Shown here: positions 14,638 through 40,885 of the stretch, piece by piece
Position numbering within the stretch: the first letter of the stretch is position 1
How the letters are laid out: every line of letters begins with the position of its first letter
Source: Ostreococcus lucimarinus
Taxonomy: Eukaryota
Assembly: GCA_000092065.1 (NCBI GenBank)
Contig: CP000583.1
Length of the DNA stretch: 64,000 bases
Strand: one strand, 5' to 3'
Notes under the pieces: generated by a model
Seen by the model: the letters and a program-made list of their open reading frames with translations, nothing else
Told to the model about the DNA's origin: nothing
Database searches by the model: none
Made by a program: the position numbers and the translations under genes

Positions 14638-14889
14638 TCAGTCCCCCGTATGCGGTCCTTTTAAAGAAACTTGCCATTGATTCGACTTCGAGTCCATGTT
14701 CGAGAATGCATTCAGGCGATCTAAACCGTCTCGCGCCATCGCTACCGCCTTCTCGATCTCCTTGGCGTCCGTCAGTTCGCGCTTTTGCCTAAACTCAACC
14801 TTGATTTCCTCCACGATGGCCATCTTGTTCTTGCTCGGAAACTTTGTCGCGGATTTCAACACCGCGCGGTACAATCGTACGGTGTCCAT
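14638..14889 (-). CDS. LYRM4: LYR-motif protein LYRM4/ISD11 (cysteine desulfurase partner)
   Basis: LYRAVLKSATKFPSKNK...IKVEFRQKRELTDAKEIEKA is collinear with LYRM4 (LYRAMLRESKHFPS...IRQEFRENKNVTDPVKIQ). An alternative start exists at 14904. Confidence 0.7.
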   Translation of the reverse strand: MDTVRLYRAVLKSATKFPSKNKMAIVEEIKVEFRQKRELTDAKEIEKAVAMARDGLDRLNAFSNMDSKSNQWQVSLKGPHTGD

Positions 14890-14998
14890 CGCGCGCGCAC
14901 CCATGCACGTTCCGCGTCGCTCGTCGCGCTACGCGGTATGCGTCGAATCGCGTCGCGTTGTGTGTTCGTCACTCTCGCGCGCGCCTCGTCGTCTCCCG

Positions 14999-16654
14999 AT
15001 GGCGTCGCGCGCGCTCGCGATCGGTGCGACGGCCACGACGGCGGCGTTTACGGCGTACGTCGCGAGTGAAGAAGGCGCGCAGCGCTCGTGCGTGTTCTGG
15101 GCCAACGCGTTTCCCGTGTACGCGCGCTATCGCGCGGTGCAAGCGCGACATCGCGACTTCGCTCGCGCGGGCGTCCCGCGCTGGACCGGGATGGTGCTGA
15201 GCGATGACGAGGCGAACGAGGCGTACGAAGCGCTGCACGATCAATACGCGACGCCAGTGCGAGATTTAGTGTACGCGATGCGGGGATTTTATCTGAAAAA
15301 CGCGCAGTTGCTGTCGACGCGGGACGACTTTGTGCCGCGGCAGTACTTGACGTGGTGCAAGGACACGCAGGATAGCGCACCCGTGGAGATGAAACCGGGC
15401 GAGGCGAGGGCGATCGCAATAAGAGAACTGGAGAAAAATGGACACACGGACGTGTTCGAGGCGTGGGACGAAACTCCGCTCGGAGTGGCGAGTATCGGAC
15501 AGGCGCACAGGGCAAAGCTGACGAAAAAGTACGGCGGCAGAACCGTCGTCGTCAAGGTGCAGGCGCCCGGAATCGAGCGACGATTTCGAGCGGACATTCG
15601 TACATGCATTGACTTTTGTAAGCTCGCCATGCCGCAACACGTGCCACCACTGGAAGAAATAGAGAGGCAGTTTTTGACTGAATTCGACTATCGCGCCGAG
15701 GCGGAAAATCTCGACGAAGTCAGATCTGCGGTGATGCCGCGGTGGGGGAACAAGGTGTACATTCCGGCGCCTCACAAGGAACTGTGCACAAAGGAGGTGT
15801 TAGTGATGGATGAAGTTCCTGGGAAGCGATTAGTAGACGGTATTCGCGATCAGTTTGACGCCATTGCTCGGTACAGGGGCACCAGTGTGAGTAGTCTGGA
15901 GGAAAATGAGCGTAGAAAGATTGAGAGCGGGAGGTTGCGAAGTCGAGACGCGAAACAAGCGGCGAAACACACAGAAAGAGTAAATACTTTCATGAAACTT
16001 CAGCATCACTTACTGATGCCTCTGAAGCTCGCGTACAACGTGTCGCCTCTTCGGTTGGTGACCGGTCCCGTGAATCGACAACCGCCGCCGAAGCTCGTGA
16101 ACCTGGGAGCGCTCCTTCAAACCTTGGTCGACGTGCACGCGTATGAGATTTTCGAGACAGGAGTGTTCAATGGCGATCCACATCCGGGAAACATCATGCT
16201 GATGCCTGACGGTAGGCTCGGACTGATTGATTACGGGCAGGTGAAACGCATAGACTCTGATGCGCAGCGGGCGTACGCCAAACTCATCTTAGCTGTAGCC
16301 AAAGGCGACGCTGAAGAATGCCACAGGTTGGTGCAGTCTAATAAACCAGAAGGTTTCGGAGCCCGAAGTAAGAATTCAGATGCAGAGGTCAGTTTTAAGT
16401 TGGCGACGTTTTGGAACGATCGAGACACGCCCGACGTTACCGAGGGACTCAACTTGCAAGAGTTTTTGGACGAAATGCAAGCGCGTGATCCGGTCATCAA
16501 GGCTCCCGATGAGATGGTCATGATTGCACGCGTTTCGGTACTTCTACGAGGTATGGGCAACGCGTTCAACATTAGGCTTAGAATGGCCGAGGCGTGGAGA
16601 GCAGATGCGGAGAAGCTCTTGGCGCGCACGGACCCAGATTACTTTCTGTTGTGA
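14999..16654 (+). CDS. ABC1/ADCK (UbiB-family) atypical kinase
   Basis: ABC1 motifs ASIGQAHRAKL...VVVKVQAPGIE, FNGDPHPGNIMLMPDGRLGLIDYGQ. Conservative ATG at 14999 (MASRALAIG). An alternative ATG at 14903 overlaps the ISD11 start codon. Confidence 0.75.
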   Translation: MASRALAIGATATTAAFTAYVASEEGAQRSCVFWANAFPVYARYRAVQARHRDFARAGVPRWTGMVLSDDEANEAYEALHDQYATPVRDLVYAMRGFYLKNAQLLSTRDDFVPRQYLTWCKDTQDSAPVEMKPGEARAIAIRELEKNGHTDVFEAWDETPLGVASIGQAHRAKLTKKYGGRTVVVKVQAPGIERRFRADIRTCIDFCKLAMPQHVPPLEEIERQFLTEFDYRAEAENLDEVRSAVMPRWGNKVYIPAPHKELCTKEVLVMDEVPGKRLVDGIRDQFDAIARYRGTSVSSLEENERRKIESGRLRSRDAKQAAKHTERVNTFMKLQHHLLMPLKLAYNVSPLRLVTGPVNRQPPPKLVNLGALLQTLVDVHAYEIFETGVFNGDPHPGNIMLMPDGRLGLIDYGQVKRIDSDAQRAYAKLILAVAKGDAEECHRLVQSNKPEGFGARSKNSDAEVSFKLATFWNDRDTPDVTEGLNLQEFLDEMQARDPVIKAPDEMVMIARVSVLLRGMGNAFNIRLRMAEAWRADAEKLLARTDPDYFLL

Positions 16655-33869: not shown

Positions 33870-34652
33870 TCACCCTATGGGCTTGTTTTCCATCCCTTCC
33901 ATCGGCGTGTCTTCGCTCGCCGTCTTCGCTCGCTTCGCTTCCTTTGTTCCGTCCTCTTGGAATTTCCCTTCGAGCTCGAATCGCGCTATTGACTTCTTTT
34001 GGAAGTTCACAACCGACGCCGTGGCGTCGACGATGAACGCTATAGATTCTAAATACTCTTCCTCAGTCAACGCACCGGTCGTGGAGCACCCGACTATGGC
34101 GATTTCCTCCTTTTCTCTATACTTGCTCAGCGCGCACGCGCGCACCACCGCCCTCGCTTCGTTTTCCTCTCGCTTCGTCGGGTCGATCACCTTCGTCCCA
34201 TCGCTCAATATCGCGCACGCATTCGCACATATCAACCCATGCATGGCCACATCCGCGTCTATGAGCGCGCAACAAAGCGCGTTCACGCACGCCGCCTCGG
34301 CGTTACCGTCGTCGCTCACGATTCGCGCCGTCGCTCGCAAGCCGAGTCTCGGAAAATCATACCGCACCACCGTCGCCTCGATCGCCCCTCGCACGCGCGC
34401 TTCGCACGCTCTTTCTTCCTCTCTCGTCATCCCGCTCGCGCTCGTGAGTTCAAACTCCACGATCCCGCGCTCGACCTCTTCGCGCCAAGGTTTCACTTTT
34501 TGCGGCCCGTGCACGGTGGCGACGACGATCGTACCGTCGATGGCGTACTCCGCGCTCCCGTGCGCGCCCGCGACGTAGTGTCGGTGCAAGCGTTGTCTTC
34601 GCAGCATCTCGCTCGAGCGTCCATCGCCCCGGAGCGCGGTCGCGGGCGCCAT
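33870..34652 (-). CDS. Exosome complex RNase PH-like subunit (RRP46/EXOSC5-like)
   Basis: RNase PH fold signature GSAEYAIDGTIVVATVHGP...RYDFPRLGLRATARIVSDDG. ATG at 34652. Confidence 0.6.
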   Translation of the reverse strand: MAPATALRGDGRSSEMLRRQRLHRHYVAGAHGSAEYAIDGTIVVATVHGPQKVKPWREEVERGIVEFELTSASGMTREEERACEARVRGAIEATVVRYDFPRLGLRATARIVSDDGNAEAACVNALCCALIDADVAMHGLICANACAILSDGTKVIDPTKREENEARAVVRACALSKYREKEEIAIVGCSTTGALTEEEYLESIAFIVDATASVVNFQKKSIARFELEGKFQEDGTKEAKRAKTASEDTPMEGMENKPIG

Positions 34653-34838
34653 GCGCGTCGAGCGCGTCGCCGTGTGACGCCGCGCGTTCGGGCAGTTTCC
34701 GGACGGTCGCGTCGTCGTCGCGCGTCGTCGTCACGCGCGTCGTCGAGTCGATTGAATCTGATCTTAATACAACACGTCCCAACGCGGCGCGACGCGCGAC
34801 GCGCGTCGTCGTCGTCGCGCTCGGCGTTTGGTTCGCCC

Positions 34839-35195
34839 TCACTTTCCTACGATGGGATCGAACAACGACTGATACACCAACGCCGCCGGTTGCATCACCA
34901 CCCCGATGAACAACTGGCTCCCCGCGAACACGACGAACTGAAACCACCCGGGCGGCTTGCCCGTGCGCTCGTCCACCGGCCACCACGGCTCCGGGGCGTC
35001 GGGCTTCGGGACGTAGTTGATCAAGTTTTTCGTCGACCCGCCTCGTCCCTTTGATCCCTTTGACGACGACGACGACGTCTTCGTCCCGCCCTTGGACGTC
35101 GTCGCGCGTCGCACCGCGCGCGCGCCGCGTCGCGGAACGCGCGCCGTCGTCGCGATCGCGCGAGGCGGTGCGCGCGCGCGCGCGACGGACGCCAT
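34839..35195 (-). CDS. Candidate small tail-anchored protein (RAMP4/SERP-like?), uncertain
   Basis: 118-aa ORF with a basic S/G/K/R-rich N-terminus, then PPGWFQFVVFAGSQLFIGVVMQPAALVY (compare SERP1 [22 protein letters not shown]). Its ATG shares the palindrome CGCCATGGCG with the divergent RGP1-like ORF. Coordinates are from the ORF track. Confidence 0.25.
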   Translation of the reverse strand: MASVARARAPPRAIATTARVPRRGARAVRRATTSKGGTKTSSSSSKGSKGRGGSTKNLINYVPKPDAPEPWWPVDERTGKPPGWFQFVVFAGSQLFIGVVMQPAALVYQSLFDPIVGK

Positions 35196-36645
35196 GGCGT
35201 CGCGAAGTGCAGACCGTTCGCGTCGCGTTCGCGTCACGTCGCGACGCGACCTCGACGGCGCGGCGACGATGACGGCGTCGACGGTGCGGATAGAGATGGA
35301 CGCGCGCGTCGGCGCGGGCGATCGCGCGCTGCGCGCGTTCGCGTCGTCGAGCGGGCAAAGTCGAGGCGCGAGGACGCGCGGGACGGTGACGACGACGAAC
35401 GATGACGACGACGACGACGACCCGCGGTGGGTGGTGTGCTCGGGACGACCGTTTCGCGGACGCGTGCGCGTTATCGCGGACGCGAACGCGCTCGCATCGT
35501 TGGTCGTGGAGCGGGTGACGGTGGAGTGGGTGGGACGCGAACGCGTGGGCGCGGAGGAGCGAAGCGTCGCGCGGTCGCCGCCGGGCGAGGTGGCGCGCGC
35601 GCTGACGCTCGAGCCTGGAAGCACGGTGGGGCTGAAGTTTGGCATTGATTTACCTCCGGGATTAGCGCCGAGTTTTCGAGGCGAGCACTCGAGGTATTGG
35701 TATCGCGTGACGTGCAAGGCGACGACGGCGAGCGGGGAGACGCTCGAGGCGAGCGCGCCGTTGACGGTTCGCGCGGGGGATTGGGATCTTGAACGCCGGG
35801 GAGAAGATGACGGTGAATTGTGTGACGATGTGGGCGATGATGATGATGTAGGCGAGATGCGAGAGACGTACAGCGCGCGTGATTTAACTGCGCCGTGGAT
35901 ACACATCGAGGACACCGTGCCGCCCGAGTCGCCGCGATTCAACGGTTCACTAGCGTCGCCTCGCGCTTTGCAGATGTGGGGAGACGTCGAACCGCAGGTG
36001 AGGACACCTCGCGAAAGCTCGACACCGCAAGCGGGCGAAGGATCGGTGTTCACTCCGCAATCGCACGGGCAGAGAAAAAAATCAAAGGCGTACGTCGTGA
36101 GCATGGGCGAGGATCGACTCGTCAAGGTGACGCTGCGCAAGCCCGCACCTAAGTGCGCGATTGGGGGCGAAGTGGCGGGTATACTCGACTTTACGTGCGC
36201 CGAACCTGGAAAAGCGCGAGCGTCCCATGTGCTCATTACGCTCGAGTCGAGTGAAATTATACACGCAGAGGCCAAGACGGTGCACGGCGGCAAGCCGCCG
36301 GTATATAGGAAAATTTGGGTACAAACGCACGAGCGAGTCGAGCATCTCAATACCTCGAATTTCGCTCTTAATTTACCTGCAAATTCCCCTGGAAGCTTTC
36401 GAACATCAAAAGTTGAGCTCAAGTGGCAGCTCAGATTCGAAATTACGTCAGTTAAGAAGACTCCGGCAGGAGAATTCGCGGCGTTTTTCAAAGGCCAAAA
36501 GCACCAGAGCGAGATTTCGACGCTCGAGTGGATACTTCCTCTCGACGTGGGTACAGATTGGCTGACTAACGTTACGAAAATACCCAAGATTAGCAGTTCG
36601 TCAAAGATTCGGAGAGAGTCATCGTTAGTTGCGATGCATGATTAG
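35194..36645 (+). CDS. RGP1-like / arrestin-fold hypothetical protein
   Basis: C-terminal two-thirds is non-repetitive (VSMGEDRLVKVTLRKPAPKCAIGGEVAGILDFTCAEPGKARASHVLITLESSE...ELKWQLRFEITS). The N-terminus overlaps GC-rich low complexity, and the start at 35194 (MASRSADRS) is tentative. Confidence 0.4.
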   Translation: MASRSADRSRRVRVTSRRDLDGAATMTASTVRIEMDARVGAGDRALRAFASSSGQSRGARTRGTVTTTNDDDDDDDPRWVVCSGRPFRGRVRVIADANALASLVVERVTVEWVGRERVGAEERSVARSPPGEVARALTLEPGSTVGLKFGIDLPPGLAPSFRGEHSRYWYRVTCKATTASGETLEASAPLTVRAGDWDLERRGEDDGELCDDVGDDDDVGEMRETYSARDLTAPWIHIEDTVPPESPRFNGSLASPRALQMWGDVEPQVRTPRESSTPQAGEGSVFTPQSHGQRKKSKAYVVSMGEDRLVKVTLRKPAPKCAIGGEVAGILDFTCAEPGKARASHVLITLESSEIIHAEAKTVHGGKPPVYRKIWVQTHERVEHLNTSNFALNLPANSPGSFRTSKVELKWQLRFEITSVKKTPAGEFAAFFKGQKHQSEISTLEWILPLDVGTDWLTNVTKIPKISSSSKIRRESSLVAMHD

Positions 36646-36692: not shown

Positions 36693-39113
36693 TTAGGCAG
36701 TCGGCGCTCCCGCCGCGACATTTGACCACAACTCGTTGAACGCGTCTGAATTGGTGGAGACGACGCCAAACTTTTCCATTTGCACGGCGTACTCCTTGGC
36801 GTCTAAATATAGCTGACGACAAATCTTGTCTGTGTCGCCCACACCCGTGCTGCTAGTTTTCCCTTGTCGATCTTTAAGACGATTCAGACTTGCCTCAGTC
36901 TTCTTGACCGTCGCCACAAGATCGCTCGCCATTTCAGCGTATCTTTCAGACACGGAATCTACGACCTTATCGACTATTTCTTGTCTCGAAGTCTTAGAAA
37001 ACATTTTTGTGCGCTCATTATCCAAAAATGCTTGCAAGGGAGCGAGAATCGTGGGCACGAAATGACTGTGTCTTGTCGGCATGGGCTTGTTCGTCATGCG
37101 AAATGTGGCGGTGATCCCCTTGAGCTGCTTCAATGATTCAACGCATCTCTCGACGTATACTTTCACGATGAATGCGTCGAGCTGCGGAATAATTTCTTGC
37201 AGCTCGTTTGCGCCTTCTAAGACGCAATCCACCGCGATTTGAGCGGTGTCTTCGCCGAGAATGCTCGTGCTCGCTTTCACGCACGCTGCACCGTCCGAAC
37301 GCACTTTAGCGCACAACTTTTCAACATCCAAGCGCACTAAAATTAACTCATCTCCACCCGCTGTGGCGCCCCAACTAGAAGAAGACGTAACCATGGTGAC
37401 TTTACCTTCTTCAGCATTCGAATCGGAGCTTTGCTGAACAGATAAAGCCTCGATGCCGGCTTTCACCCAAGTTCTATATCGCGACAACACCTGCGCAAAC
37501 AGTCTAATAAATTTGTCCGTGAGGGCTGGAACGAAGACTTCCTCCGCCATGCATTTCGCCATCGTCAGCCATGTTTGCGTTGTCGGTGTGAGTAAAAATC
37601 CATCGCTCGCTCGCGAGGTATCAAGACCCGGCTCGTTCAGCTCTTCATCGACATCGCAAGCAAACTCTTGGAAGCGCAAATTAAAGTACACCGAAAGATT
37701 CCACCTCTTCATGTACGATTCCAAGTACCTGGACGCCCGGAAATGATTCAATGACGCCATCGTTGGTGCGAGATCTTCTAATATATCCACAAACTTCATC
37801 GCCGCGCGATAGTTCTTGATGAAATCCTGTGGGATTCCCGGCGAGTACGCTTTCTCAAAAGCTGAACTCAGTTGCGAATCAACCTCTGCGAGTACAGTTC
37901 CAGCGAGAAAGTCGTGCGACTGTAGGCCCGATTCGGCGACTCGCGTAAGATCAAGTACGTAAGAGCACGATGTAAGCGCAGTTTCACTTAGTTTTGGCAA
38001 CACTGACGCAAAATCTTCCTCGGCAATCGATTCAAGCGTCTTCTCCACCGCTGGGCGGATCAATACAGTTCGAATCGCGCTTTCCACAACGTCAAACTTC
38101 CCGATCGCGGTGCAACCGTGCAAGCAATGACTTATAACGTTCGCGTTCTTTTCTTTTAAACCATCGATGAGCGCAGTTTGCGCCAAAGAAGTGAGCTTCA
38201 ACTCGCAATACTCGATTCGGTCGGCGAGGTCTCGAATCGCCGAAAGATCTTTTCCTTGCTTTTGGTAAAACTTTAAGCGATTTACTTCGCTCGAAATGCG
38301 ATCGAGCATCCGCGCGCGCTCGTTCACATCTCCACTGATGTGCTCTCGATGCATATCGTCCGTTTCAGCTCCGCTCGGCGTCGCTTGATCGTCCTCAAAC
38401 GCTGGAGCCAACATCTCCAAGCCTTCGCGATCCTCCGCGCCGATCACCACCGAGGCGAGTAAGTCTCCAGCTCTCTCCCCACCCGTCGCACCATCGCTCG
38501 CCGATGACTTTCCACCGACGACATCTAACTCTCCGAGCAATCGCTCAACCTTTGAAACCGTATGTCCGCACTCATCCGCCAGGCGCTTGCTCGCGCTCGC
38601 GCGCGCCTGCGCCTCTCGCTCCTCCGCGCTCGCCTCCAACCGTTCCAGCGCTCGCACGATTTCCTCCCTCCCCTCGCTCACCTCTCGTTTCGTCTCAATC
38701 TGTCCCGGCATTATTTTATCCCTCAACTCCGCGTAATCCCTCAGATCATCCCCGAGCGACGCAAACTCCTCGTAGTTTTCGTTCACCAGTCGCTCCAGCG
38801 CCTCGCGCGTCTCCCGCTCGTGCCCGTCCAGCGCCTCCCTCAGCGTTTCCGATCCCACGAACGTCGTGATCTCCTCCACGTACTCCCACGGATCGAAATC
38901 ATCCCTCTCGAACGCCCGCGCGTCGAACCACGTCGGCCTTCCATCGCGCGCGTCGTCGAGATCGCCCGTCCCGTTCGCCTTCGCGACGCTCGCGTCGTCG
39001 TCGTCGTCGTCGTCGTCGTCCCGCCGTCGTCGTATGCGCACGTCCTCGTCGTCGCTCGACGTCGTCGTCGTCGTTCGCGCGTCGTCCTCGTCGCCGTCCA
39101 TCGCCGCCGTCAT
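36693..39113 (-). CDS. COG2: Conserved oligomeric Golgi complex subunit 2 (COG2)-like
   Basis: N-terminal COG2 pattern FERDDFDPWEYVEEITTFVGSETLREAL...LVNENYEEFASLGDDLRDYAE. Acidic Asp-rich N-terminus. ATG at 39113. Confidence 0.6.
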   Translation of the reverse strand: MTAAMDGDEDDARTTTTTSSDDEDVRIRRRRDDDDDDDDDASVAKANGTGDLDDARDGRPTWFDARAFERDDFDPWEYVEEITTFVGSETLREALDGHERETREALERLVNENYEEFASLGDDLRDYAELRDKIMPGQIETKREVSEGREEIVRALERLEASAEEREAQARASASKRLADECGHTVSKVERLLGELDVVGGKSSASDGATGGERAGDLLASVVIGAEDREGLEMLAPAFEDDQATPSGAETDDMHREHISGDVNERARMLDRISSEVNRLKFYQKQGKDLSAIRDLADRIEYCELKLTSLAQTALIDGLKEKNANVISHCLHGCTAIGKFDVVESAIRTVLIRPAVEKTLESIAEEDFASVLPKLSETALTSCSYVLDLTRVAESGLQSHDFLAGTVLAEVDSQLSSAFEKAYSPGIPQDFIKNYRAAMKFVDILEDLAPTMASLNHFRASRYLESYMKRWNLSVYFNLRFQEFACDVDEELNEPGLDTSRASDGFLLTPTTQTWLTMAKCMAEEVFVPALTDKFIRLFAQVLSRYRTWVKAGIEALSVQQSSDSNAEEGKVTMVTSSSSWGATAGGDELILVRLDVEKLCAKVRSDGAACVKASTSILGEDTAQIAVDCVLEGANELQEIIPQLDAFIVKVYVERCVESLKQLKGITATFRMTNKPMPTRHSHFVPTILAPLQAFLDNERTKMFSKTSRQEIVDKVVDSVSERYAEMASDLVATVKKTEASLNRLKDRQGKTSSTGVGDTDKICRQLYLDAKEYAVQMEKFGVVSTNSDAFNELWSNVAAGAPTA

Positions 39114-39180: not shown

Positions 39181-39300
39181 CCGTCACCACGAAACCCCGT
39201 CCCGCGTCGCGCTCTTCGCGTCACCACGAAACCCCGTCCCGCGTCGCGCGTCGCGTCACCACGAAACCCCGTCCCGCGTCGCGCTCTTCGCGTCGCGAAC
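39181..39300. repeat. About 36-bp tandem repeat x3 in the divergent promoter between COG2 and the downstream hypothetical gene
   Basis: gtcaccacgaaaccccgtcccgcgtcgcg(ctcttcgc/cgtcgc) repeated three times. Followed by (GACGCGG)3 and a (GAC)7 run ending at the ATG at 39590. Confidence 0.75.
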
Positions 39301-39589: not shown

Positions 39590-39919
39590 ATGGCGGAGGA
39601 CGGCGACGATCCGGGGCTGGTGTCGTTCGATGAGCTGGCGAGCGTGGGGACGATGCGGGCGGAGGACGCGCCGCGAGGGTCGTCGCCGGCGGCGAACGAG
39701 GAGGATAGTTTCGGGAGCGCGACGAGCGAGGGGCAGGCGTCGCCGGCGCCGACGATGATGAGGAGCGTGTTGACGCGGAAACCGTCGGTGGCGGCGCTGA
39801 AGGCGATGTTGATGAGCGAGCGGGATGAGGAAGGGGCGGGGGAGGGGAGCGAGACGGACGAGGACGAGGGGGTGTGCTCGCTCAGCGAGTTCGCGATGGT
39901 GTTGAACGCGGCGGCGTGG
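39590..39919 (+). CDS. Hypothetical acidic protein, exon 1
   Basis: ATG at 39590. The exon ends before a consensus GTGAGT donor at 39920. Confidence 0.45.
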
Positions 39920-40000
39920 GTGAGTGTTGACGATGCGCGCGCGCGCTTTTGGGAAATGAATCGTTGTTTGGACCCGTACTGACGTTTTTGACGCGCGTAG

Positions 40001-40885
40001 GACGATGCATCGGTCGGGGCGTTGGGCGTCGAAGTCATCGTGAAGCAGCTCGAACTCTTGCGAGGGAAAATCGCGCCAGAGGCGTCTCTGAGCAGCATGT
40101 TGGGGTTTGATCTCGCGGAAGACTTGTCGGTACGCGCTAACAGCGCTGGTATGGTGAGCGTAGGTGCGATCGGAAACGTTCTCTACCGCGGTTTGTCGCG
40201 ATCACGGAGCGTGGCGACGCTCTCGAGCGACCGGGAAAGATTTGAAGACATCCTCGATCGACGCGCGGTGAAGAATATATCAAAGGTGCTCGGTGGAGGC
40301 GATGAAGACGCGATCATCACTTCTGAGGATCTTAAAGCTAAGCTAGATTACTATGGAGTGCGATCAAGCATGACGGACATCATTTCCATCATGACACAAG
40401 CCGACATCGAGAGCACGGGCGTGGTCAAGGTTGGGGATCTCAGTCGGTTGTTGGCGCGAGAGCTCGAGCAGTTGCGAGGTTTGCTCGATGAGAAAGTCGA
40501 TAATTCGAAAAGTGAAAGATTTAGAGTTTCTTTAGACATTGAACGCGACGGCGCAGAAACGAGCAACAGTCTGTTGAAAGGCCAAGCCACCTTTGGCGTA
40601 CTTCAACGGTTTCCGACGGCGCGCAAAGACAGACAAAAGCCGGGGCGTTTGCTGTGGGCGAAAGATGACGAAATGTGCGCGGTGTGTCTATTCGATCGAT
40701 CCGGGACGATGATGGTAGAAGAACAAGGTCAACTGATAGATCTACCCACCAAGCTCGATTATTTCACCGATGTTGCGCGCGATGCAGACACGCGAACCAT
40801 CGTCCATCTTCCCGCGCCGCCGCCTCAGGAACAGGAGAAAAAGAAGGGTGGATTCGCCAGCTTCTTCTGCTGCTTTTCCGCTTGA
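40001..40885 (+). CDS. Hypothetical protein exon 2 (degenerate EF-hand-like loops, C-terminal CCFSA possible acylation site)
   Basis: The same frame as exon 1 resumes after TAG at 40000. An 81-nt, in-phase intron removes the intervening stop. CTGAC lies 17 nt upstream of the acceptor. Confidence 0.45.
   Translation, partial: DDASVGALGVEVIVKQLELLRGKIAPEASLSSMLGFDLAEDLSVRANSAGMVSVGAIGNVLYRGLSRSRSVATLSSDRERFEDILDRRAVKNISKVLGGGDEDAIITSEDLKAKLDYYGVRSSMTDIISIMTQADIESTGVVKVGDLSRLLARELEQLRGLLDEKVDNSKSERFRVSLDIERDGAETSNSLLKGQATFGVLQRFPTARKDRQKPGRLLWAKDDEMCAVCLFDRSGTMMVEEQGQLIDLPTKLDYFTDVARDADTRTIVHLPAPPPQEQEKKKGGFASFFCCFSA

Follow-up and report, generated by a model that had tools for sequence, protein, structure and literature searches.

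The window analysed in this study, i.e. the whole 64,000-nucleotide stretch of Ostreococcus lucimarinus DNA (assembly GCA_000092065.1, contig CP000583.1), contains at 35.19 kb a palindromic CATG from which open reading frames run outwards on both strands. The site has the following features:

34839..35195, minus strand: coding sequence of a small conserved protein, 118 aa plus stop (MASVARA...), equal to XP_001416920.1 / A4RU96, annotated 'predicted protein'
35190..35199: perfect 10-bp palindrome CGCCATGGCG, holding a minus-strand ATG (35195 down to 35193) and a plus-strand ATG (35194-35196)
35194..35268, plus strand: in-frame upstream ATG and 24 further codons (MASRSADRSRRVRVTSRRDLDGAAT), most likely non-coding and excluded by the reference model
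35196..35268: spacer of 73 bp between the start codons, of very high GC content and with many CG-type inverted repeats
35269..36645, plus strand: Rgp1-family coding sequence, 458 aa plus stop (MTASTVRIEMD), equal to XP_001416634.1

The palindrome is present as a single copy in the 64-kb window, and its two ATGs, offset by 1 nt, have only 2 bp in common (the central A-T and T-A). A first-pass annotation, made from the letters alone, had proposed that two divergent ORFs initiate here from the same codon. Each of them does contain an ATG within the palindrome (minus strand at 35195, plus strand at 35194), but the codons are different ones (35193-35195 versus 35194-35196), and the proposal that both ORFs initiate there is not supported; only the small minus-strand gene needs its ATG. 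The accompanying caveat, that at most one member of such a pair can use the codon unless the transcripts overlap, is correct. A minus-strand start with C at -1 and G at +4 is bound to present a CATG on the opposite strand as well.

The 1-2 nt coordinate mismatch that had raised the suspicion of a coordinate or assembly error near 34.8-35.3 kb results from the offset of the two ATGs, and the suspicion is unfounded: the window sequence is reproduced across the site by 12 independent metagenome contigs (L001-L012), which depart from it over positions 34796-35695 at three SNPs only (34950, 35063 and 35072). The proteins encoded here and at the second CATG locus described below are identical to NCBI reference proteins of O. 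lucimarinus CCE9901. Long spurious ORFs are common in this region (e.g. a 582-aa ORF antisense to Rgp1, and those at 34239..35054 and 34450..35358), and the small minus-strand ORF might be thought to be another product of GC-rich sequence, if not of mis-assembly. However, the same sequence crosses the site in all 12 contigs, the sequence of the small protein itself appears in 508 indexed blocks of the contig collection, and its C-terminal domain is strongly conserved among homologues sharing the gene neighbourhood. An error or a spurious ORF is thus scarcely credible.

A start of the small gene at the ATG inside CGCCATGGCG, as in the reference annotation, is supported by the sequence; from the conserved domain up to the antisense side of Rgp1, no other ATG is in frame. 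The N-terminal part of the product (approximately 56 aa) contains 10 R, 5 K, 10 A, 9 S and 7 T but neither D nor E, and looks like an organellar presequence, while the C-terminal part (approximately 60 aa) forms a conserved domain with one hydrophobic helix. Hydrophobicity peaks in the 19-residue window formed by residues 88-106 of 118 (mean Kyte-Doolittle value 1.66). The description of this protein as being of tail-anchored type is therefore only partly appropriate: a single hydrophobic helix does lie near the C-terminus, but the N-terminus would not be signal-free, given its basic, acid-free putative presequence. We found 13 homologues at E <= 1e-3, with an invariant core (APxPW...TGKPPGWFQ..VFA.SQ.F) and variable basic N-terminal extensions; long hydroxylated, basic extensions occur in all full-length members of the family. 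An exhaustive profile search recovered only 18 proteins among 1.84 billion representatives, five members tried against Pfam gave no match even at E <= 5, and no relative was found among solved structures. The small gene is predicted to encode a lineage-restricted membrane protein with an N-terminal presequence.

The plus-strand gene had been recognized as Rgp1-like, and this identification is confirmed by its match to Pfam PF08737 (Ric1-Rgp1 complex subunit; E = 1e-18, 68.2 bits, cut-off 31). A weak Arrestin_N-like match was also obtained, below the cut-off of that profile. Read from the ATG at 35194, the Rgp1 frame yields a 483-aa MASRSAD... product with its stop at 36645; begun at 35269, it gives the N-terminus (M)TASTVRIEMDAR. 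On the basis of the reference model (XP_001416634.1) and of ortholog N-termini, the start of Rgp1 is best placed at 35269. In four more distant Mamiellales, one in-frame ATG is the sole possible Rgp1 start, and in L013 and L026 in-frame stops lie just upstream of the start. The N-termini of the relatives read MASSSPGAPAMRMELD (L013), MSDDSRGVRLEMD (L014), MPASATRVEID (L020) and MIAIDLD (L026). The start precedes a conserved R-x-E-x-D motif by 1-11 residues in four relatives, a range which position 35269 fits, whereas 35194 would give 31 residues. It should be noted that both reference models and metagenome gene calls are themselves predictions.

A closer comparison is provided by the sister species L023, whose Rgp1 is 91% identical. 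There, the 75 nt between the two plus-strand ATGs carry indels of -1, -2 and +3 that shift the plus-strand frame over approximately 10 codons, and the spacer is 84% identical versus 95% for the Rgp1 coding sequence. In L014, L020 and L024 the start of the small gene is also embedded in a CATG, and the antisense ATG is either out of the Rgp1 frame or followed by a stop after 3 codons. Of the four ATGs that share a CATG in the two pairs, the NCBI reference annotates just one as a start, namely that of the small protein. Ortholog N-termini, the stops in L013 and L026, the L023 indels and the reference model all favour 35269 as the Rgp1 start over a genuine start at each of the two ATGs.

These observations bear directly on the alternative in which both strands use the CATG, the mRNAs overlap head to head, and a 483-aa Rgp1 with an Arg-rich 25-aa extension is made alongside or instead of the 458-aa form. 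For the upstream codons to be translated, an Rgp1 mRNA would need a 5' end upstream of 35194, in which case the AUG there would be used. An assembled MMETSP transcript (Transcript_6112) does span both genes, carrying the 483-aa Rgp1 ORF together with a 465-aa antisense ORF that ends in the small protein; this contig is unstranded, however, and so does not indicate which strand crosses the junction. The upstream AUG has a strong context (G at -3 and G at +4), it is the sole plus-strand ATG between 34906 and 35269, and in both O. lucimarinus and the sister species it lies in frame, at exactly 75 nt, with no intervening stop. By our own estimate, the chance of the ATG staying in frame and stop-free is approximately 1 in 3 to 1 in 5, and its retention is therefore not significant. 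Overlapping UTRs that concatenate neighbouring transcripts have been reported for O. tauri (PMC4378021). Against these points, the amino acids of the extension are not conserved even in the sister species, more distant orthologues contain no comparable extension, and the equivalent antisense ATG of L014, L020 and L024 would be detrimental as a regular part of the Rgp1 mRNA. We consider regular use of the CATG by both strands unlikely, although Rgp1 may make minor use of the upstream AUG, given the spanning MMETSP transcript and the UTR overlap documented in Ostreococcus. A more elaborate version, in which a regulated share of Rgp1 transcripts starts upstream of 35194, the CATG serves as a start on both strands and selection keeps the ATG in frame in the O. 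lucimarinus clade, appears more doubtful still. If true, Rgp1 would gain an isoform with an Arg-rich N-terminal extension, whose targeting might differ.

The preferred interpretation takes in the arrangement of the two genes. Both are genuine, divergent protein-coding genes present in the NCBI reference annotation, and their starts are separated by 73 nt, far less than the 1 kb conventionally allowed for a head-to-head pair. The gene order COG2, Rgp1, small gene, RRP46, Myb is kept across species, as are the short start-to-start spacers (36-167 nt in orthologous loci). The two genes, arranged head to head as a conserved and tightly packed pair of the O. lucimarinus CCE9901 nuclear genome, would adjoin at this site. 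The small gene would begin at the palindromic ATG, and the antisense ATG would fall by chance in the Rgp1 frame within a GC-rich, stop-poor spacer; Rgp1 itself would begin 75 nt downstream, at 35269, leaving the 73-bp spacer. Both core promoters and both 5' leaders must be located in this spacer or next to it. We infer that Rgp1 transcription starts within it, downstream of 35196, so that the upstream AUG would be missing from most Rgp1 mRNAs, while the small gene would have its 5' end in the spacer or a short way into the Rgp1 coding region. Neither maps of transcription starts nor lengths of 5' UTRs were found for Ostreococcus in the literature searched, which offered only general remarks about UTR overlap and about the abundance of bidirectional pairs. 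We assign a probability of roughly 0.8 to this reading, i.e. an ordinary head-to-head junction whose CATG at 35.19 kb is used by the small gene, with Rgp1 starting at 35269 and the second CATG pair being likewise trivial.

A palindrome located in the centre of a very short bidirectional region could also have a function at the DNA or RNA level, for example as a binding site for a transcription factor or as a hairpin coordinating both genes, and not be a by-product of a start-codon context. Its symmetry continues imperfectly into the flanks, where GACGCCATGGCGTCGCGAA pairs with a downstream arm, and inverted repeats are also found in the L013 and L014 spacers. However, the palindrome is already broken to CGCCATGCGT in the sister species L023 and is absent in other relatives. 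A loop-less 10-bp palindrome cannot form a stable hairpin. The surrounding sequence is a CG-repeat region of low complexity: 29 pairs of inverted repeats were counted within 251 nt, and 12 of the 202 perfect 10-bp palindromes of the window fall within 600 nt (positions 34900-35500). The adjoining GTCGCGAC motif occurs at chance level (7 copies observed versus 7.1 expected), which led us to reject it as a functional spacer motif and to attribute the inverted repeats to low-complexity CG sequence. A scan of the spacer for bacterial promoters and terminators, a type of analysis unsuited to a eukaryote, returned nothing meaningful. A functional role for the palindrome is thus very improbable.

Neither the palindrome nor the sharing of CATG sites by ORFs is in statistical excess. 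Of 100 dinucleotide-preserving shuffles, 13 contained the exact CGCCATGGCG 10-mer one or more times. The window contains 176 CATG sites, three of which have complementary 3+3 flanks (3.1 +/- 1.7 expected by permutation), and at 16 of the 176, ORFs (ATG to stop) of 100 aa or more begin on both strands. C occupies position -1 in 11 of 39 first ATGs of long ORFs, and in every such case an antisense ATG automatically arises. The shared palindromic start is most likely used by just one of the two genes and is an expected by-product of a compact, GC-rich genome.

The same considerations apply to a second CATG in the window, at 14.9 kb, with these features:

14638..14904, minus strand: ORF of a LYRM4/ISD11-like LYR protein, 88 aa from 14904 or 83 aa from 14889 (the latter as in the reference, XP_001416913.1)
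14902..14905: second CATG, with a minus-strand ATG (14904 down to 14902) and a plus-strand ATG (14903-14905)
14999..16654, plus strand: coding sequence of an ABC1 atypical kinase, 551 aa plus stop (MASRALAIG), equal to XP_001416627.1

The minus-strand ATG opens the LYRM4-like sequence MGARAMDTVRLYR..., and the plus-strand ATG lies upstream of, and in frame with, the ABC1 kinase. The naming of this pair as a LYR-family protein and an ABC1 kinase is borne out by Pfam matches above the cut-offs (PF05347, 51.6 bits versus 24.8; PF03109, 151.9 bits versus 22.9). ATGs are indeed present on both strands at 14902-14905, as had been described, but the ABC1 gene starts at 14999 and not at 14903. In the ABC1 orthologues of L028 and L029, in-frame stops lie 17 and 23 codons upstream and no ATG intervenes, and the start is therefore fixed there at the Met homologous to 14999. 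The ATG at 14903 is thus, as judged from these orthologues, an in-frame codon upstream of ABC1 and not its start. The LYR motif occupies residues 11-13 of the 88-aa form; it is preceded by 6-9 residues in orthologues, compared with 5 (from 14889) or 10 (from 14904) in the window, and the LYRM4-like protein may start at either position. This second pair would be of the same trivial origin as the first. A third CATG, at 40096, opens first-ATG ORFs of 262 and 280 aa on opposite strands, neither of which has a Pfam match; it was rejected as a gene junction, as it sits inside a plus-strand gene with an apparent start at 39590 and an apparent intron.

It is already known that both genes at 35.19 kb are present in the O. 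lucimarinus reference with non-overlapping coding starts, and that dense head-to-head packing with overlapping UTRs is documented in Ostreococcus genomes. In O. tauri, 2288 bidirectional transcript pairs involving 3884 transcripts have been catalogued (PMC4035068), and the head-to-head arrangement is therefore usual in the genus. The Rgp1/small-gene pair resembles those pairs in consisting of two real divergent genes well under 1 kb apart, with the pair and its orientation conserved across Mamiellales, although its 73-bp spacer looks short. RNA-seq assembly in O. tauri produced too many concatenated transcripts as a consequence of overlapping UTRs (PMC4378021), and in Micromonas mean intergenic distances are approximately 170-210 nt and overlapping gene pairs occur (PMC4815162). 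The MMETSP contig spanning Rgp1 and the small gene is reminiscent of these prasinophyte systems, but the documented Micromonas overlaps are mainly convergent (3'), whereas the putative one considered here would be 5'-5'. Similarly, a strong-context, in-frame AUG that, if transcribed, would extend Rgp1 by an Arg-rich peptide of 25 aa recalls alternative upstream-AUG isoforms, from which it differs in that the extension is not conserved across orthologues.

The biological importance of the shared CATG itself is small. It serves as a caution for annotation: first-ATG and longest-ORF rules over-extend N-termini and create apparent shared starts, as exemplified by the 483- and 465-aa ORFs on the MMETSP transcript. 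The 483-aa Rgp1, the 583-aa ABC1, and the 465- and 542-aa ORFs all belong to this class of artefact, familiar from GC-rich genomes, and arise because stop codons are rare in spacers of 65-72% GC. Two further points may be of practical value. The small gene represents an uncharacterised family confined to prasinophyte-like green algae, and the 73-bp spacer, the counterparts of which in relatives measure 36-167 bp, is a candidate for use as a minimal bidirectional promoter in the engineering of Mamiellales.

Inspection of the sequence at 35.19 kb confirmed that the palindromic 10-mer CGCCATGGCG, which occurs only once in the window (35190-35199), carries an ATG on both strands:

35195 down to 35193, minus strand: ATG opening a 118-codon ORF that ends at 34839 (MASVARARAPP...QSLFDPIVGK)
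35194-35196, plus strand: in-frame ATG of a 483-codon ORF that ends at 36645 (MASRSADRS...)

The two ATGs are offset by 1 nt, their common part being only the central 2 bp of CATG, and this offset accounts for the "1-2 nt disagreement" reported in the first-pass annotation. The mis-assembly suspected there at 35.17-35.20 kb was refuted by 12 independent metagenome contigs of two haplotype groups (L001-L012), which agree with the window over 34796-35695 with the exception of three SNPs, none of them placed on the palindrome. A second CATG-sharing pair, consisting of a gene for an LYR protein (LYRM4/ISD11-like, minus strand) and the ABC1 kinase gene (plus strand), is present at 14902-14905, as originally described.

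Reference proteins of the two gene pairs (accession, length, product, start)
XP_001416920.1, 118 aa, small protein, start at the palindrome
XP_001416634.1, 458 aa, Rgp1, start at 35269
XP_001416913.1, 83 aa, LYR protein, start at 14889
XP_001416627.1, 551 aa, ABC1, start at 14999

The two CATGs supply four ATGs, a single one of which is an annotated start; the caveat that at most one member of each pair uses the codon was right. Initiation of both ORFs at the palindrome is unsupported, since the annotation and the orthologues place the Rgp1 start at 35269. Related Mamiellales contigs conserve the order COG2, Rgp1, small gene, RRP46-like RNase PH, Myb. In four more distant species, Rgp1 has just one in-frame ATG at which it could begin:

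L013: Rgp1 N-terminus MASSSPGAPAMRMELD, in-frame stop 9 codons upstream
L014: Rgp1 N-terminus MSDDSRGVRLEMD, in-frame stop far upstream
L020: Rgp1 N-terminus MPASATRVEID, in-frame stop far upstream
L026: Rgp1 N-terminus MIAIDLD, in-frame stop 7 codons upstream

A conserved R-x-E-x-D motif sits 1-11 residues after the start in these four loci. In the window, MTASTVRIEMD from 35269 fits this spacing, and initiation at 35194 would give a 31-residue lead. The sister species (L023, Rgp1 91% identical) retains the CATG with a broken palindrome (CGCCATGCGT), and the 75 nt between its two in-frame ATGs contain -1, -2 and +3 indels, so that the plus frame differs for about 10 codons; identity to the window is 84% in the spacer versus 95% in the Rgp1 CDS. 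The small gene also starts within a CATG in L014, L020 and L024, where the antisense ATG is either out of the Rgp1 frame (41 and 110 nt upstream) or followed by a stop after three codons. Conservation of the locus thus does not extend to the in-frame relation found in O. lucimarinus, and, judged from these comparisons, the Rgp1 start is most likely 35269. The orthologous spacers of L013 (2865-2910; CGCGCCAGTGACTGGCGCG) and L014 (2517-2557; CGAGAC...GTCTCG), both with Rgp1 on the plus strand, contain conspicuous inverted repeats.

At the second pair, the minus-strand ATG (MGARAMDTVRLYRAVL...) faces a plus-strand ATG located 96 nt before the ATG at 14999 and in the same frame. ABC1 orthologues start with M[AS]LRR..., approximately 25 residues ahead of a conserved EEGA.RS motif and homologous to MASRALAIG at 14999. 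Initiation of ABC1 at the shared CATG is ruled out by L028 and L029, which have in-frame stops 17 and 23 codons upstream and no intervening ATG; the 583-aa form has no exact-sequence match in a collection of 15 billion proteins. The LYR gene has two in-frame ATGs, 14889 and 14904, separated by 15 nt. The downstream one (83 aa, G at -3) is the start in the reference, the upstream one (88 aa, T at -3) that of most metagenome and transcriptome callers. Ahead of the LYR motif, orthologues carry 6-9 residues and the window 5 (from 14889) or 10 (from 14904).

The minus-strand small gene is real and depends on the palindromic ATG, which is the sole in-frame ATG ahead of the conserved domain until the frame enters the antisense side of Rgp1. 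Thirteen homologues (E <= 1e-3) have variable basic N-terminal extensions and an invariant core, APxPW..P...TGKPPGWFQ..VFA.SQ.F. Searching 1.84 billion representatives exhaustively with a profile brought the total to 18 by adding only a few more distant members, again with long S/T/A/R-rich N-termini. Among the homologues (P0001-P0013, P0116-P0129), all full-length members have such an extension followed by a ~60-aa conserved domain at the C-terminus (consensus TGK[AP]PG..Q..VF.ASQ.F.G.V.QP). No Pfam family was matched by the small protein, and no relative with a solved structure was found. The earlier term "tail-anchored-type" holds in that the most hydrophobic 19-mer is residues 88-106, but not in the classical sense, as residues 1-56 are basic (10 R, 5 K) and lack both D and E. 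Together these features make the product look like a presequence-bearing, single-helix membrane protein. The protein (A4RU96) belongs to an uncharacterised family; it is probably organelle-targeted and restricted to prasinophyte-like green algae.

The frequency of shared CATGs and palindromes is at chance level, without excess. The exact 10-mer arose in 13 of 100 dinucleotide-preserving shuffles, and CATG occurs 176 times in the window, 3 times between complementary 3+3 flanks, versus 3.1 +/- 1.7 with permuted flanks. Perfect 10-bp palindromes number 202, with 12 lying within 34900-35500 because the spacers are rich in CG repeats. An antisense ATG always accompanies a start codon with C at -1, which is the case for 11 of 39 long-ORF first ATGs in the window, and 16 CATG sites serve both strands as the beginning of an ATG-to-stop ORF of at least 100 aa; stop codons are rare, since local GC content reaches 64-72%. 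At 34239-35054 (+), 34450-35358 (-) and 34839-36587 (-), long ORFs (271-582 aa) overlie real genes, either in another frame or on the opposite strand. These are by-products of GC-rich, stop-poor sequence, and several are stored as "proteins" in public metagenome collections (e.g. P0014, a 542-aa TTG-start version of Rgp1).

What lies here is a commonplace head-to-head junction of a compact genome, present in the existing annotation, where two conserved genes diverge from a GC-rich 73-bp spacer (36-167 bp in relatives). There are no further ATGs in this spacer on either strand, no plus-strand ATG between 34906 and 35194 and no minus-strand ATG between 35193 and 35495. Both core promoters and both 5' leaders would have to fit in or overlap the spacer, implying either very short leaders or transcripts overlapping at their 5' ends. 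Under the scanning model, use of AUG 35194 is set only by the position of the Rgp1 transcription start. Its context is strong (G at -3, G at +4), and minor output of an extended Rgp1 isoform may occur; the comparative data hold no sign of selection for it, and it is unlikely that 5'-overlapping transcripts make the CATG a true start on both strands. The assembled contig MMETSP Transcript_6112 (P0034, P0054; window ~34839-36645) spans both genes, indicating continuous RNA-seq coverage across the junction. It encodes a 483-aa Rgp1 ORF and a 465-aa antisense ORF ending in the small protein. Such joining matches the concatenation seen in O. tauri, where re-annotation put it down to overlapping UTRs (PMC4378021). 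The ORF calls on the MMETSP contig, which comes from a public transcriptome assembly, are an over-extended Rgp1 and a chimera antisense to Rgp1, the latter sharing a 90% cluster with the genuine 118-aa protein. Divergent pairs of this kind are usual in the genus, O. tauri having 2288 bidirectional transcript pairs (PMC4035068), and mean intergenic distance in Micromonas is ~170-210 nt (PMC4815162).

In the neighbouring region, the COG2 frame (36693-39113, minus) is an uninterrupted 806-codon ORF with an ATG immediately after a stop codon. The NCBI reference in its cluster, XP_001416921.1, has 766 aa, so this model differs, probably N-terminally or by way of a predicted intron. CATG 40096, which has first-ATG ORFs on both strands (262 and 280 aa), was rejected as a gene junction, as it lies inside a plus-strand gene of the 39590-40300 region with an apparent start at 39590 and an apparent short intron at ~39921-39999 (gtgagt...gtag). 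The very GC-rich spacer between the ATG at 39590 and the COG2 start (39113, minus) contains a tandem repeat (39182-39294) of ~3.1 copies of a 37-nt unit (CGTCACCACGAAACCCCGTCCCGCGTCGCGCTCTTCG), with 92% matches.
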